In this document: piece by piece, positions 3,258 to 46,613 of the stretch
Numbering within the stretch: the first letter of the stretch is position 1
How the letters are laid out: every line of letters starts with the position of its first letter
NCBI RefSeq assembly: GCF_044324785.1
Contig: NZ_CP172127.1
Strand: one strand, 5' to 3'
From: Escherichia coli
Lineage (GTDB): Bacteria > Pseudomonadota > Gammaproteobacteria > Enterobacterales > Enterobacteriaceae
DNA length: 64,000 nucleotides
Position numbers and translations under genes: made by a program
Notes under the pieces: model-generated
What the model saw: the letters and a program-made list of their open reading frames with translations, nothing else
Told to the model about the DNA's origin: nothing
The model's database searches: none

Positions 3258-4991
3258 ATGCATTCCACAGAAGTCCAGGCTAAACCTCTTTTTAGCTGGA
3301 AAGCCCTGGGTTGGGCACTGCTCTACTTTTGGTTTTTCTCTACTCTGCTACAGGCCATTATTTACATCAGTGGTTATAGTGGTACTAACGGCATTCGCGA
3401 CTCGCTGTTATTCAGTTCGCTGTGGTTGATCCCGGTATTCCTCTTTCCGAAGCGGATTAAAATTATTGCCGCAGTGATCGGCGTGGTGCTATGGGCGGCC
3501 TCTCTGGCGGCGCTGTGCTATTACGTCATCTACGGTCAGGAGTTCTCGCAGAGCGTTCTGTTTGTGATGTTCGAAACCAACACCAACGAAGCCAGCGAGT
3601 ATTTAAGCCAGTATTTCAGCCTGAAAATTGTGCTTATCGCGCTGGCCTATACGGCGGTGGCAGTTCTGCTGTGGACACGCCTGCGCCCGGTCTATATTCC
3701 AAAGCCGTGGCGTTATGTTGTCTCTTTTGCCCTGCTTTATGGCTTGATTCTGCATCCGATCGCCATGAATACGTTTATCAAGAACAAGCCGTTTGAGAAA
3801 ACGTTGGATAACCTGGCATCGCGTATGGAGCCTGCCGCACCGTGGCAATTCCTGACCGGCTATTATCAGTATCGTCAGCAACTAAACTCGCTAACAAAGC
3901 TACTGAATGAAAATAATGCCTTGCCGCCGCTGGCTAATTTCAAAGATGAATCGGGTAACGAACCGCGCACCTTAGTGCTGGTAATTGGCGAGTCGACCCA
4001 GCGTGGACGCATGAGTCTGTACGGTTATCCGCGTGAAACCACGCCGGAGCTGGATGCGCTGCATAAAACCGATCCTAATCTGACCGTGTTTAATAACGTA
4101 GTTACGTCTCGTCCGTACACCATTGAAATCCTGCAACAGGCGCTGACCTTTGCCAATGAAAAGAACCCGGACCTGTACCTGACACAGCCGTCGCTGATGA
4201 ACATGATGAAACAGGCGGGTTATAAAACCTTCTGGATCACCAACCAGCAGACAATGACCGCCCGCAATACCATGCTGACGGTATTTTCGCGCCAGACCGA
4301 CAAGCAGTACTACATGAACCAGCAACGTACGCAGAGTGCGCGTGAATACGACACCAACGTGCTGAAGCCGTTCCAGGAAGTGTTGAAGGACCCTGCACCG
4401 AAGAAACTGATCATCGTTCATCTGCTGGGTACGCATATCAAATACAAATACCGCTACCCGGAAAATCAGGGCAAGTTTGATGACAATACCGATCATGTTC
4501 CACCGGGATTAAGCGCAGAAGAGCTGGAGTCATATAACGATTATGACAACGCTAACCTGTATAACGATCATGTGGTTGCCAGCCTGATTAAAGACTTTAA
4601 AGCAGCAGACCCGAACGGTTTCCTGGTTTACTTCTCTGACCACGGTGAAGAGGTTTACGACACGCCGCCGCACAAAACTCAGGGGCGTAATGAAGACAAC
4701 CCGACGCGTCATATGTACACCATTCCGTTCCTGCTGTGGACGTCAGAAAAATGGCAAGCGACTCATCCGCGTGATTTCTCACAGGATGTTGATCGTAAAT
4801 ACAGCCTGGCGGAATTGATCCACACCTGGTCAGATTTAGCGGGCTTATCTTACGACGGTTACGACCCAACCCGTTCAGTGGTGAATCCGCAGTTCAAAGA
4901 AACTACCCGCTGGATTGGTAACCCGTACAAGAAAAACGCGCTGATCGATTACGACACGCTGCCGTATGGCGACCAGGTAGGTAATCAGTAA
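3258..4991 (+). CDS. eptC: phosphoethanolamine transferase (LPS core modification), sulfatase-family membrane protein
   Basis: ORF 3213-4991; the remembered EptC/YijP N-terminus MHSTEVQAKPLFSWKALGW begins at the internal ATG 3258 (577 aa). Multi-TM N-terminus plus sulfatase-like C-terminus. Confidence 0.9.
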   Translation: MHSTEVQAKPLFSWKALGWALLYFWFFSTLLQAIIYISGYSGTNGIRDSLLFSSLWLIPVFLFPKRIKIIAAVIGVVLWAASLAALCYYVIYGQEFSQSVLFVMFETNTNEASEYLSQYFSLKIVLIALAYTAVAVLLWTRLRPVYIPKPWRYVVSFALLYGLILHPIAMNTFIKNKPFEKTLDNLASRMEPAAPWQFLTGYYQYRQQLNSLTKLLNENNALPPLANFKDESGNEPRTLVLVIGESTQRGRMSLYGYPRETTPELDALHKTDPNLTVFNNVVTSRPYTIEILQQALTFANEKNPDLYLTQPSLMNMMKQAGYKTFWITNQQTMTARNTMLTVFSRQTDKQYYMNQQRTQSAREYDTNVLKPFQEVLKDPAPKKLIIVHLLGTHIKYKYRYPENQGKFDDNTDHVPPGLSAEELESYNDYDNANLYNDHVVASLIKDFKAADPNGFLVYFSDHGEEVYDTPPHKTQGRNEDNPTRHMYTIPFLLWTSEKWQATHPRDFSQDVDRKYSLAELIHTWSDLAGLSYDGYDPTRSVVNPQFKETTRWIGNPYKKNALIDYDTLPYGDQVGNQ

Positions 4992-41424: not shown

Positions 41425-41579
41425 ACCGCTCACGATGCGAGGCGGATCGAAAAATTCAATATTCATCACACTTTTCATGAAAATTCTGTAACCGTTTTCA
41501 CGCGCTATCTGCTAAAAATGTTGCCGATGTGAAGTAAACATGGATGTAGTACGCCTGACGTGCCAGGCGAGGAGTGAGT

Positions 41580-42605
41580 GTGAAAGCGAAGAAGCAGGAA
41601 ACTGCCGCGACCATGAAAGACGTTGCCCTCAAGGCAAAAGTCTCTACAGCGACTGTCTCCCGAGCATTAATGAATCCCGATAAAGTCTCCCAGGCCACCC
41701 GTAATCGGGTTGAAAAAGCGGCCCGGGAAGTGGGTTATTTACCGCAGCCTATGGGGCGCAACGTCAAGCGTAATGAATCCCGCACCATTCTGGTGATTGT
41801 CCCGGATATCTGCGATCCCTTCTTTAGCGAAATTATTCGCGGTATCGAAGTTACGGCGGCAAATCACGGATATCTGGTGCTGATTGGCGACTGTGCGCAT
41901 CAAAATCAGCAGGAAAAAACCTTTATCGATTTGATCATCACCAAGCAAATTGATGGCATGTTGCTGCTGGGTTCAAGGCTGCCGTTTGATGCCAGCATTG
42001 AGGAACAGCGTAATCTGCCGCCGATGGTGATGGCGAACGAATTTGCACCGGAACTGGAGCTGCCTACAGTTCATATCGACAATCTGACCGCCGCATTTGA
42101 TGCAGTAAATTATTTATATGAGCAAGGGCATAAACGGATTGGCTGTATAGCCGGTCCCGATGAGATGCCGCTGTGTCACTACCGCCTGCAAGGTTACGTT
42201 CAGGCGCTGCGTCGCTGCGGCATTATGGTTGATCCGCAATACATCGCCCGTGGTGACTTCACCTTCGAAGCCGGAAGCAAAGCAATGCAACAACTGCTTG
42301 ATCTTCCACAACCGCCTACTGCTGTCTTCTGCCATAGCGATGTGATGGCGCTCGGCGCACTTTCTCAGGCAAAACGCCAGGGGCTGAAAGTCCCGGAAGA
42401 CCTTTCCATAATCGGTTTTGATAACATCGACCTGACGCAATTTTGTGATCCGCCGCTGACAACCATCGCGCAGCCGCGTTACGAAATCGGTCGGGAAGCT
42501 ATGCTGTTATTGCTTGATCAAATGCAGGGGCAACACGTTGGCAGTGGCTCTCGTTTAATGGACTGCGAACTTATCATCCGGGGATCAACACGCGCGTTAC
42601 CTTAA
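41580..42605 (+). CDS. cytR: LacI-family transcriptional repressor CytR
   Basis: ORF from 41574; remembered CytR MKAKKQETAATMKDVALKAKVSTATVSRAL starts at GTG 41580 (341 aa). Confidence 0.93.
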   Translation: MKAKKQETAATMKDVALKAKVSTATVSRALMNPDKVSQATRNRVEKAAREVGYLPQPMGRNVKRNESRTILVIVPDICDPFFSEIIRGIEVTAANHGYLVLIGDCAHQNQQEKTFIDLIITKQIDGMLLLGSRLPFDASIEEQRNLPPMVMANEFAPELELPTVHIDNLTAAFDAVNYLYEQGHKRIGCIAGPDEMPLCHYRLQGYVQALRRCGIMVDPQYIARGDFTFEAGSKAMQQLLDLPQPPTAVFCHSDVMALGALSQAKRQGLKVPEDLSIIGFDNIDLTQFCDPPLTTIAQPRYEIGREAMLLLLDQMQGQHVGSGSRLMDCELIIRGSTRALP

Positions 42606-42696
42606 AGTAAACCTTTAAGACTGCCGTGACTGGTCAAAGGCCCGCCGCTTAAGTAACATGGCGGGCTGACGAACGAATAAATACAGCGAAACGATA

Positions 42697-43656
42697 GTGG
42701 CACAACGAGATTATGTACGCCGCAGCCAACCGGCACCTTCGCGGCGAAAAAAGAGCACCTCACGGAAAAAGCAACGAAATCTGCCTGCGGTTTCTCCCGC
42801 TATGGTCGCTATTGCTGCCGCCGTTCTTGTGACCTTTATCGGTGGTCTGTACTTCATTACGCATCACAAGAAAGAAGACTCCGAGACGCTGCAAAGCCAG
42901 AAAGTGACCGGAAACGGACTACCACCAAAACCAGAAGAACGCTGGCGCTACATCAAAGAGCTGGAAAGTCGCCAGCCGGGTGTGCGTGCGCCTACAGAAC
43001 CTTCTGCCGGTGGTGAAGTGAAAACGCCGGAGCAACTGACACCAGAACAACGCCAACTTCTTGAACAAATGCAGGCCGATATGCGCCAGCAGCCAACGCA
43101 GCTGGTTGAAGTTCCGTGGAATGAGCAGACGCCGGAACAGCGTCAGCAAACGCTACAGCGCCAGCGTCAGGCGCAGCAATTAGCGGAGCAGCAACGCCTG
43201 GCTCAGCAGTCGCGTACGACTGAACAAAGCTGGCAGCAGCAGACGCGTACGTCGCAAGCCGCACCGGTACAGGCGCAACCGCGCCAGTCTAAACCGGCTT
43301 CTACTCAGCAGCCGTACCAGGATCTGCTGCAAACTCCTGCGCACACGACCGCGCAGTCGAAGCCGCAGCAAGCTGCGCCGGTTGCTCGTGCCGCTGACGC
43401 GCCAAAACCGACGGCGGAGAAAAAAGACGAACGCCGCTGGATGGTGCAGTGCGGTTCGTTCAGAGGCGCGGAACAGGCAGAGACGGTACGTGCTCAGCTG
43501 GCGTTTGAAGGCTTTGACTCGAAGATCACCACCAACAATGGCTGGAATCGTGTGGTCATTGGCCCGGTGAAAGGCAAAGAGAACGCAGACAGCACCCTCA
43601 ATCGCTTGAAGATGGCGGGTCATACAAACTGCATTCGGCTCGCCGCCGGGGGTTGA
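42697..43656 (+). CDS. ftsN: cell division protein FtsN (SPOR domain)
   Basis: 319-aa ORF (GTG start) MAQRDYVRRSQPAPSRRKK; Gln/Pro-rich linker; C-terminal SPOR-like region. Confidence 0.95.
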   Translation: MAQRDYVRRSQPAPSRRKKSTSRKKQRNLPAVSPAMVAIAAAVLVTFIGGLYFITHHKKEDSETLQSQKVTGNGLPPKPEERWRYIKELESRQPGVRAPTEPSAGGEVKTPEQLTPEQRQLLEQMQADMRQQPTQLVEVPWNEQTPEQRQQTLQRQRQAQQLAEQQRLAQQSRTTEQSWQQQTRTSQAAPVQAQPRQSKPASTQQPYQDLLQTPAHTTAQSKPQQAAPVARAADAPKPTAEKKDERRWMVQCGSFRGAEQAETVRAQLAFEGFDSKITTNNGWNRVVIGPVKGKENADSTLNRLKMAGHTNCIRLAAGG

Positions 43657-43680
43657 AACCCTCAAAATCCCCCCCATCTA
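43652..43680 (+). promoter_or_regulatory. candidate sigma-32 heat-shock promoter of hslVU
   Basis: TTGAAA followed 13 bp later by CCCCATCTA, matching the sigma-32 consensus (CTTGAAA ... CCCCATnT), ~70 bp upstream of hslV; a gccccgtac...gtacggggt hairpin lies in the leader. Confidence 0.55.
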
Positions 43681-43748
43681 TAATTGCATTATGCCCCGTA
43701 CTTTTGTACGGGGTTTGTACTCTGTATTCGTAACCAAGGGGTCAGCTC

Positions 43749-44279
43749 GTGACAACTATAGTAAGCGTACGCCGTAACGGCCATGTGGTCATCGCTGGTG
43801 ATGGTCAGGCCACGTTGGGCAATACCGTAATGAAAGGCAACGTGAAAAAGGTCCGCCGTCTGTACAACGACAAAGTCATCGCGGGCTTTGCGGGCGGTAC
43901 TGCGGATGCTTTTACGCTGTTCGAACTGTTTGAACGTAAACTGGAAATGCATCAGGGCCATCTGGTCAAAGCCGCCGTTGAGCTGGCGAAAGACTGGCGT
44001 ACCGATCGCATGCTGCGCAAACTTGAAGCACTGCTGGCAGTCGCGGATGAAACTGCATCGCTTATCATCACCGGTAACGGTGACGTGGTGCAGCCAGAAA
44101 ACGATCTTATTGCTATCGGCTCCGGCGGCCCTTACGCCCAGGCTGCGGCGCGCGCGCTGTTAGAAAACACTGAACTTAGCGCCCGTGAAATTGCTGAAAA
44201 GGCGTTGGATATTGCAGGCGACATTTGCATCTATACCAACCATTTCCACACCATCGAAGAATTAAGCTACAAAGCGTAA
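43749..44279 (+). CDS. hslV: ATP-dependent protease subunit HslV
   Basis: 176-aa ORF (GTG start) [30 protein letters not shown]. Confidence 0.97.
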
Positions 44280-44288
44280 GGATCTCCC

Positions 44289-45620
44289 ATGTCTGAAATG
44301 ACCCCACGCGAAATCGTCAGCGAACTGGATAAGCACATCATCGGCCAGGACAACGCCAAGCGTTCCGTGGCGATTGCTCTGCGTAACCGCTGGCGTCGCA
44401 TGCAGCTCAACGAAGAGCTGCGCCATGAAGTGACCCCGAAAAATATCCTGATGATCGGCCCGACCGGTGTCGGTAAAACTGAAATCGCCCGTCGTCTGGC
44501 TAAGCTGGCGAATGCGCCGTTCATCAAAGTTGAAGCGACCAAATTCACCGAAGTGGGCTATGTCGGTAAGGAAGTGGATTCTATTATTCGCGATCTGACC
44601 GATGCCGCCGTGAAAATGGTACGCGTCCAGGCTATCGAGAAAAACCGTTATCGCGCTGAAGAACTGGCAGAAGAACGTATTCTCGACGTGCTGATCCCAC
44701 CTGCTAAAAACAACTGGGGACAGACCGAACAGCAGCAGGAACCGTCCGCTGCTCGTCAGGCATTCCGCAAGAAACTGCGTGAAGGCCAGCTTGATGACAA
44801 AGAAATCGAGATCGATCTTGCCGCAGCACCGATGGGCGTTGAAATTATGGCTCCTCCGGGCATGGAAGAGATGACCAGCCAGCTGCAGTCCATGTTCCAG
44901 AACCTGGGCGGCCAGAAGCAAAAAGCACGTAAGCTGAAAATCAAAGACGCCATGAAGCTGCTGATTGAAGAAGAAGCGGCGAAACTGGTGAATCCGGAAG
45001 AGCTGAAGCAAGACGCTATCGACGCTGTTGAGCAGCACGGGATCGTGTTTATCGACGAAATCGACAAAATCTGTAAGCGCGGCGAGTCTTCCGGTCCGGA
45101 TGTTTCTCGTGAAGGTGTTCAGCGTGACCTGCTGCCGCTGGTAGAAGGTTGCACCGTTTCCACCAAACACGGGATGGTCAAAACTGACCACATTCTGTTT
45201 ATCGCTTCTGGCGCGTTCCAGATTGCGAAACCGTCTGACCTGATCCCGGAACTGCAAGGTCGTCTGCCAATCCGTGTTGAGCTGCAGGCACTGACCACCA
45301 GCGACTTCGAGCGTATTCTGACCGAGCCGAATGCCTCTATCACCGTGCAGTACAAAGCACTGATGGCGACTGAAGGCGTAAATATCGAGTTTACCGACTC
45401 CGGTATTAAGCGCATCGCGGAAGCGGCATGGCAGGTGAACGAATCTACCGAAAACATCGGTGCTCGTCGTTTACATACCGTTCTGGAGCGTTTAATGGAA
45501 GAGATTTCCTACGACGCCAGCGATTTAAGCGGTCAAACCATCACTATTGACGCAGATTATGTGAGCAAACATCTGGATGCGTTGGTGGCAGATGAAGATC
45601 TGAGCCGTTTTATCCTATAA
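44289..45620 (+). CDS. hslU: ATP-dependent protease ATPase subunit HslU
   Basis: 443-aa [40 protein letters not shown]; Walker [16 protein letters not shown]. Confidence 0.97.
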
Positions 45621-45649
45621 TCGCGTTCAATCATTTTCATCATTGTTTG

Positions 45650-45675
45650 ATGGGGCTGAAAGGCCCCATTTTTAT
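45650..45675 (+). terminator. rho-independent terminator after hslU
   Basis: tgggg-ctgaaagg-cccca hairpin followed by a T-rich tail. Confidence 0.6.
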
Positions 45676-45686
45676 TGGCGCGTATT

Positions 45687-46613
45687 ATGACTGAACAACA
45701 AATTAGCCGAACTCAGGCGTGGCTGGAAAGTTTACGACCTAAAACCCTCCCCCTCGCCTTTGCTGCAATTATCGTCGGGACGGCGCTGGCATGGTGGCAA
45801 GGTCACTTCGATCCGCTGGTCGCCCTGCTGGCACTGATTACCGCCGGGCTATTACAGATCCTTTCTAACCTCGCCAATGATTACGGCGATGCGGTAAAAG
45901 GCAGCGATAAACCTGACCGTATCGGACCGCTACGCGGCATGCAAAAAGGGGTCATTACCCAGCAAGAGATGAAACGGGCGCTCATTATTACCGTCGTGCT
46001 CATCTGTCTCTCCGGGCTGGCACTGGTTGCAGTGGCGTGCCATACGCTGGCCGATTTTGTCGGTTTCCTGATTCTTGGCGGGTTGTCGATCATTGCCGCT
46101 ATCACCTACACCGTGGGCAATCGTCCTTATGGTTATATCGGTCTGGGTGATATTTCCGTACTGGTTTTCTTTGGCTGGTTAAGCGTCATGGGCAGCTGGT
46201 ATTTACAGGCTCATACATTGATTCCGGCGCTGATCCTTCCTGCGACCGCATGCGGCTTGCTGGCAACGGCAGTACTGAACATTAATAACCTGCGTGATAT
46301 CAATAGCGACCGCGAAAATGGCAAAAACACGCTGGTGGTGCGCTTAGGTGAAGTGAATGCGCGTCGTTATCATGCCTGCCTGCTGATGGGCTCTCTGGTG
46401 TGTCTGGCGCTGTTTAATCTCTTTTCACTGCATAGCCTGTGGGGCTGGCTGTTCCTGCTGGCGGCACCATTACTGGTGAAGCAAGCCCGTTATGTGATGC
46501 GGGAAATGGACCCGGTGGCGATGCGACCGATGCTGGAACGCACTGTCAAGGGAGCGTTACTGACTAACCTGCTGTTTGTTTTAGGGATATTCCTAAGCCA
46601 GTGGGCAGCATAA
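45687..46613 (+). CDS. menA: 1,4-dihydroxy-2-naphthoate octaprenyltransferase
   Basis: ORF from TTG 45675; ATG at 45687 gives MTEQQISRTQAWLESLRPKTLPLAFAAIIVG (308 aa), UbiA-family membrane prenyltransferase. Confidence 0.93.
   Translation: MTEQQISRTQAWLESLRPKTLPLAFAAIIVGTALAWWQGHFDPLVALLALITAGLLQILSNLANDYGDAVKGSDKPDRIGPLRGMQKGVITQQEMKRALIITVVLICLSGLALVAVACHTLADFVGFLILGGLSIIAAITYTVGNRPYGYIGLGDISVLVFFGWLSVMGSWYLQAHTLIPALILPATACGLLATAVLNINNLRDINSDRENGKNTLVVRLGEVNARRYHACLLMGSLVCLALFNLFSLHSLWGWLFLLAAPLLVKQARYVMREMDPVAMRPMLERTVKGALLTNLLFVLGIFLSQWAA

Follow-up and report, generated by a model that had tools for sequence, protein, structure and literature searches.

We identify, with high confidence, the region between ftsN and hslV as the RpoH heat-shock promoter of the hslVU (clpQY) operon followed by the 5′-UTR stem-loop catalogued as RF02401. 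Both elements have already been described and curated, and their recovery confirms that the scan can find, from raw sequence, a heat-shock promoter of textbook type together with a cis-regulatory RNA that is already curated. The significance beyond a correct annotation is slight; with a leader of probably 61 nt, five nucleotides of the message precede the hairpin. The region covers positions 43652–43748 of the window (the whole 64,000-nt stretch of Escherichia coli DNA that was analysed), from one base 5′ of the −35 element to the last base ahead of the hslV GTG codon at 43749. In order, it reads ...ggGGG TTGAAA ccctcaaaatccc CCCCATCT ATAATTGCATTAT GCCCCGTAC tttt GTACGGGGT ttgtactctgtattcgtaacc AAGGGG tcagctc GTG. 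The elements of the locus are the following.

41574–42605, + strand: cytR, from the list of open reading frames
42697–43656, + strand: ftsN coding sequence, a 319-aa open reading frame annotated as ftsN, with its TGA stop codon at 43654–43656
43653–43658, + strand: σ32 −35 element TTGAAA, seen in the sequence, with the ftsN stop codon inside it; its RpoH dependence is published
43672–43679, + strand: σ32 −10 element CCCCATCT, which takes in the 3′ part of a run of seven C (43669–43675)
43679–43684, + strand: TATAAT, a perfect −10 hexamer of the σ70/σS type that lacks a usable −35, latent or minor
43688, + strand: hslVU transcription start site (A), from SMRT-Cappable-seq (NC_000913.3 position 4122348, reverse strand)
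43693–43714, + strand: leader stem-loop with arms GCCCCGUAC (43693–43701) and GUACGGGGU (43706–43714) and a UUUU loop
43694–43751, + strand: match to the covariance model Rfam RF02401 (ClpQY_promoter), from the hairpin through the GTG
43715–43735, + strand: mostly single-stranded leader segment, highly conserved in the alignment
43736–43741, + strand: Shine-Dalgarno sequence AAGGGG, 7 nt ahead of the GTG; invariant in 43 sequences, which were found with a search pattern that required it
43749–44279, + strand: hslV (clpQ) coding sequence, a 176-aa open reading frame with a GTG start, as annotated
44289–45620, + strand: hslU (clpY) coding sequence, a 443-aa open reading frame, as annotated
45649–45670, + strand: intrinsic terminator after hslU, a 9-pair stem followed by TTTATT, at the end of the main transcript

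Genomic context of the hslVU operon

The window is a piece of the E. coli chromosome in which open reading frames and annotation give the gene order cytR-ftsN-hslV-hslU-menA, all on the + strand, with a gap of 92 nt between ftsN and hslV. A 1-kb stretch around the feature is 100% identical to E. coli chromosomes and is found in 5425 of 5426 complete genomes, and the matching genomes annotate the genes as ftsN, hslV and hslU. The open reading frames and this annotation confirm the gene names put forward in a preliminary description of the region, and every element named there is present in the sequence at the position it was given. The same genes lie on the reverse strand of MG1655. Published coordinates were converted by subtraction (window position = 4166036 − NC_000913.3 coordinate), and the conversion was verified at the ftsN stop codon and the hslV start codon.

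The σ32 promoter of hslVU

A σ32 promoter had been proposed for hslVU, and the motif is indeed the published RpoH promoter (PMC2681174). The consensus of E. coli σ32 promoters such as dnaK P1, groE and ibpAB (TTGAAA, a spacer of 13–15 nt and CCCCATNT) is matched exactly at 43653–43679, and both hslVU elements are perfect. The spacer measures 13 nt, or 14 by the convention of PMC10044804. The hslVU promoter differs from these promoters in that its −35 is embedded in the last codons and the stop codon of the upstream gene ftsN, and in that a perfect TATAAT shares the last base of its −10. The −35/−10 pair had been said to overlap the end of ftsN; this is correct for the −35, which contains the TGA at 43654–43656, and incorrect for the −10, which lies outside the gene.

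The motif is rare in the window and well kept among relatives. A pattern scan for TTGAAA-N12-15-CCCCAT finds a single match in the 64 kb on both strands, and in dinucleotide-preserving shuffles, used to estimate chance, the mean is 0.09 matches, with at least one in 9 of 100 shuffles. In the orthologous regions the −35 TTGAAA is kept in 43 of 43, with a 1-nt insertion in one. The alignment of 43 Enterobacteriaceae sequences shows CCCCCAT and the T.TATA that follows it to be essentially invariant.

Published genetics assign this motif to RpoH. Lien et al. (2009, PMC2681174), whose primers match the window exactly, found that clpQ::lacZ fusions are heat-induced and that clpQ expression falls and its heat induction is lost in rpoH mutants, with rpoS mutants unaffected. 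A C-to-T mutation of the −10 (CCCCCTCATCT), which the sequence of primer F3 places at the sixth C of the run, lowers expression 1.7-fold and abolishes heat induction (PMC2681174). Basal expression persists both in the rpoH mutant and in the −10 mutant, whose drop is only 1.7-fold (PMC2681174), and this residual expression suggests that a second weak promoter or read-through from ftsN contributes.

The TATAAT hexamer stands 20 bp from TTGAAA and overlaps the last base of the σ32 −10. In the heat-evolved E. coli strain BM28 the run of seven C has lost 2 bp, and its authors suggest a shift from σ32 to σ70 control (PMC10044804). Read on the present sequence, the same deletion would give TTGAAA-N18-TATAAT, a good σ70 promoter. 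The hslVU promoter would thus be one 2-bp deletion away from a σ70 promoter, and such a change has been seen in a heat-evolved strain.

Transcription start, transcript classes and terminator

Full-length transcript data fix both ends of the hslVU message. The preliminary description had made its promoter depend on where transcription starts; the capped reads place the start at 43688, 8 nt 3′ of the −10 element CCCCATCT, which is the correct distance for a σ32 promoter, and the assignment stands. Reads starting at MG1655 position 4122348 number 143 in one growth condition (M9 or rich) and 76 in the other (Yan et al. 2018, PMC6131387). The hslV|hslU transcript listed in Supplementary Data 1 of the same work runs on the reverse strand from 4122348 to 4120362 (PMC6131387). 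Its end corresponds to window position 45674, just past the terminator-like hairpin at 45649–45670, and the known terminator centre at 4120376 corresponds to window position 45660 (PMC6131387). In our scan of 42500–46000 this hslU terminator is the only convincing intrinsic terminator.

From A43688 to the GTG the leader measures 61 nt. The start quoted by Lien et al. (2009, PMC2681174, after Chuang 1993) is 71 bp upstream of the GTG, which corresponds to window position 43678. This position lies inside the −10 element, is geometrically implausible, and is 10 nt away from the capped-read start. The commonly quoted 71-nt leader is therefore probably 61 nt long by the capped-read data. The supplementary tables of Kim 2012, Ettwiller 2016 and Cho 2014 that were searched contain nothing relevant to the hslVU start.

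Four classes of transcripts overlap in the interval 42697–45674: cytR-ftsN, an ftsN-hslV-hslU read-through class, hslV-hslU, and hslV-hslU-menA-rraA, the last arising by read-through of the hslU terminator (Yan et al. 2018, PMC6131387). Given this overlap, the σ32 promoter is not the sole source of the hslVU message.

The leader stem-loop

The stem-loop consists of nine pairs, eight of them Watson-Crick and the closing one G-U. It begins after five unpaired nucleotides (AUUAU) at the 5′ end of the message, 37 nt past the ftsN stop codon. The Shine-Dalgarno sequence follows 22 nt downstream. Its predicted minimum free energy is −16.5 kcal/mol, against −4.7 ± 2.0 for shuffled sequences (z = −5.97), and none of 200 shuffles is as good. 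Perfect 8-bp hairpins give 35 register hits in the window, which correspond to about 19 distinct hairpins, and shuffled sequences give about 5.5 hits. With so many distinct hairpins in the window, the mere presence of one is no rarity for a bacterial genome; the hslVU leader hairpin is unusually GC-rich and stable. A second helix predicted in the minimum-free-energy fold around the Shine-Dalgarno sequence and the GTG is weak; the invariance of its columns in part reflects the search pattern, which demanded them.

The Rfam covariance model RF02401 matches the leader over its full length (model positions 1–57 of 57) with 63.6 bits against a gathering score of 42 (E = 2e-13). The only other matches in the Rfam scan are weak chance hits to other families, such as anti-hemB at 15.5 bits. 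The matched element is the one described by Lien et al. in 2009, in the same species, with the same 8-bp core stem at the same position: a conserved, GC-rich stem-loop in a 5′ UTR that ends at the hslV GTG. The family name ClpQY_promoter is misleading, since what the model describes is the transcribed leader, not the promoter. The family match, together with the z-score of the fold, bears out the stable leader hairpin that had been noted from the sequence.

An AUG at 43691, 3 nt past the start site, opens a 28-codon reading frame (43691–43777) that spans the hairpin and extends, out of frame, into the start of hslV. We rejected it as an upstream open reading frame, since the AUG is ACG or CUG in most relatives.

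Conservation of the stem-loop in Enterobacteriaceae

The comparative set was collected with a DNA-pattern scan for the segment from the Shine-Dalgarno sequence to the GTG. It comprises 49 loci, from which 43 distinct sequences were aligned; the genera include Escherichia, Citrobacter, Salmonella, Klebsiella, Raoultella, Kosakonia, Enterobacter, Trabulsiella and others. Across the nine stem pairs, 96.4% of the cells in the alignment (n = 43) hold a standard pair, compared with 29–63% when the 3′ partners are slid by 1–3 columns. The five inner C-G/G-C pairs show no variation in the 43 sequences. The two pairs above them carry compensatory changes, one occurring as C-G, U-G or U-A and the other as A-U (32 sequences) or G-C (10 sequences), and none of 500 shuffles reaches the observed covariation score. 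The loop, by comparison, varies freely among relatives in both sequence and length. These patterns lend independent support to the view that the stem is probably under selection as a structure, within one family and with sequences picked through an adjacent conserved motif. The region had been called an ordinary conserved feature, an appraisal with which we agree; the promoter elements and the stem are both conserved in the 43 Enterobacteriaceae sequences.

Two relatives depart from this arrangement. In Citrobacter amalonaticus S646 (locus L026, positions 4371–4492) and in Intestinirhabdus alba (locus L024, from about position 1170), an insertion lies exactly between the −10 element, CCCCATCTATA, and the rest of the leader. 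The C. amalonaticus insert, 122 nt long, belongs to a repeat dispersed between genes, of which E. coli genomes carry a median of 8 copies at about 80–83% identity; this dispersal makes it ERIC/IRU-like. In the I. alba locus the insert is longer, and no 5′ arm of the usual hairpin can be recognised. In these two genomes more than 120 nt would separate the hairpin from the σ32 start.

Effect of the stem-loop on the hslVU message

Mutational data link the hairpin to the stability of the message. A 40-bp deletion in the leader, which removes the segment 43715–43735 plus part of the hairpin, lowers both β-galactosidase activity and mRNA (PMC2681174). When transcription is driven by pBAD, loss of either the inverted repeat or the entire leader reduces both ClpQ protein and mRNA, and the hairpin-deleted mRNA decays faster than wild type after rifampicin (PMC2681174). 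Replacing the 3′ arm by T residues has the same effect as the deletion, and a hairpin of swapped sequence and equal stability restores the mRNA level (PMC2681174). Lien et al. found no effect of Hfq (PMC2681174). It had been suggested from the sequence that the hairpin could modulate stability or translation: the deletion and restoration experiments (PMC2681174) uphold the first, and the second is not supported, as the hairpin lies 22 nt from the Shine-Dalgarno sequence, the predicted accessibility of that sequence is flat from 30 to 50 °C, and Lien et al. report no thermosensitive segment (PMC2681174).

The start of the 5′ arm, GCCCC (43693–43697), is complementary to the Shine-Dalgarno core GGGGU (43737–43742). 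A 5′ arm freed from its partner may mask the Shine-Dalgarno sequence and so confound the mutant with T residues in the 3′ arm, though not the full deletion of the hairpin.

Published experiments show that RNA polymerase with σ32 recognises TTGAAA (43653–43658) and CCCCATCT (43672–43679). Initiation maps independently to A43688, and transcripts extend across both hslV and hslU and end at the terminator near 45670. For the 61-nt leader that emerges first, folding predicts a 9-bp hairpin of high stability with five nucleotides ahead of it. In the published experiments this stem-loop raises the steady-state level and the half-life of the message by virtue of its structure and not its sequence. It would presumably do so by hindering decay that depends on the 5′ end, either by limiting the access of RppH and RNase E to that end or by standing as an obstacle to RNase E moving from it. 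The Shine-Dalgarno sequence, 22 nt downstream, would remain free.

Stem-loops in the 5′ UTRs of ompA and papA stabilise mRNA against RNase E. They resemble the hslVU element in being stable hairpins near the 5′ end whose structure, not sequence, prolongs the life of the mRNA, and differ from it in starting 0–2 nt from the 5′ end, as opposed to 5 nt in hslVU. Five unpaired nucleotides ahead of a stem are, judging from the work on ompA, at or beyond the limit of classical 5′-terminal protection. Lien et al. drew the analogy with the ompA and papA leaders themselves, and in their pBAD constructs the hairpin is still effective behind extra vector-derived 5′ sequence (PMC2681174). With extra 5′ sequence tolerated and five nucleotides left unpaired, a hairpin that acts as an obstacle to RNase E coming from the 5′ end would fit better than a strict end-cap.

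Alternative readings of the hairpin and of the TATAAT box

The hairpin could serve two purposes, blocking RNase E at the 5′ end of the hslVU message and forming a leaky 3′ boundary or protector of cytR-ftsN transcripts, with TATAAT as a latent σ70 promoter two poly-C slippage bases away from activation. We regard this combination as unlikely; if it were true, the hairpin would set the ratio of ftsN-only messages to ftsN-hslVU read-through messages. That the hairpin is mainly or additionally a terminator or 3′-end protector of cytR-ftsN transcripts, its place in the hslVU leader being incidental, appears to us quite unlikely. The position of the hairpin 37 nt past the ftsN stop codon speaks for such a role, as it is the only strong hairpin in the 92-nt gap and is followed in E. 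coli by UUUGU. SMRT-Cappable-seq also reports a cytR-ftsN class that ends after ftsN, beside the ftsN-hslV-hslU read-through class (PMC6131387); the 3′-end coordinate of this class was not found in the published transcript tables searched.

Several observations argue against a terminator. Our intrinsic terminator scan of 42500–46000 does not call the hairpin, and the Term-seq tables list no sense-strand 3′ end between MG1655 positions 4122200 and 4122499. The tail past the stem is UUUGUACU in E. coli; most relatives have a tail rich in C and not in U (for Citrobacter CCUGUAUUC, for Klebsiella and Raoultella CCCCUAUUCC), whereas the stem itself is conserved. The mutational data further show the hairpin acting within an hslVU message made from a foreign promoter (PMC2681174). 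A minor, E. coli-specific contribution of the hairpin to termination after ftsN may exist alongside its place in the hslVU leader.

That the operon is driven mainly from TATAAT (43679–43684) by σ70 or σS, with the σ32 motif secondary, we consider highly unlikely. The hexamer is perfect and its key positions A2 and T6 are invariant in relatives, and the basal expression in rpoH mutants and the mere 1.7-fold drop of the −10 mutant (PMC2681174) would suit such a promoter. However, no acceptable −35 lies 16–18 bp from TATAAT, and a σ70 promoter scan of 42500–46000 returned no sites. The start at 43688 is only 4 nt past the hexamer, too close for it and at the right distance for CCCCATCT. An rpoS mutation has no effect, heat induction needs rpoH, and mutating the putative RpoS −10 at this place was also without effect (Lien et al., data not shown in PMC2681174).

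It is most improbable that the palindrome functions on the other strand, as the end or the protector of an antisense RNA overlapping hslV. Term-seq places a + strand 3′ end at MG1655 position 4122347, which corresponds to − strand position 43689 of the window and lies 5 nt beyond the antisense hairpin, and the end carries the label 'antisense to ftsN' (Adams 2021, Supplementary file 1). On this strand the hairpin has a predicted folding energy of −15 kcal/mol. Against this, no U tract follows the antisense hairpin, and a σ70 scan of 42500–46000 found no antisense promoter. The signal at 4122347 is 1381, compared with 20168 and 100650 for two of its neighbours in the table, and is comparable to low entries of 1132–1505; the end is listed once in a table that covers three growth conditions. 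It also adjoins the sense start site at 4122348, and by this adjacency a library artefact derived from the 5′ end of the hslVU mRNA is the simpler reading and the probable origin of the antisense 3′ end at 43689.

There is only the slimmest chance that hslV translation is controlled by this hairpin opening on heat shock, as an RNA thermometer or translational regulator would: the hairpin does sit in the leader of a heat-shock gene, with CCCC in its 5′ arm complementary to the GGGG of the Shine-Dalgarno sequence, but the stem includes neither that sequence nor the start codon, Lien et al. found no thermosensitive segment, and transcriptional and translational fusions show the same effect (PMC2681174). 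We rejected a thermometer on the pair probabilities predicted from 30 to 80 °C; every stem pair is predicted to be formed with a probability of at least 0.88 from 30 to 60 °C, and the predicted accessibility of the Shine-Dalgarno sequence stays at 0.51–0.52 from 30 to 50 °C.
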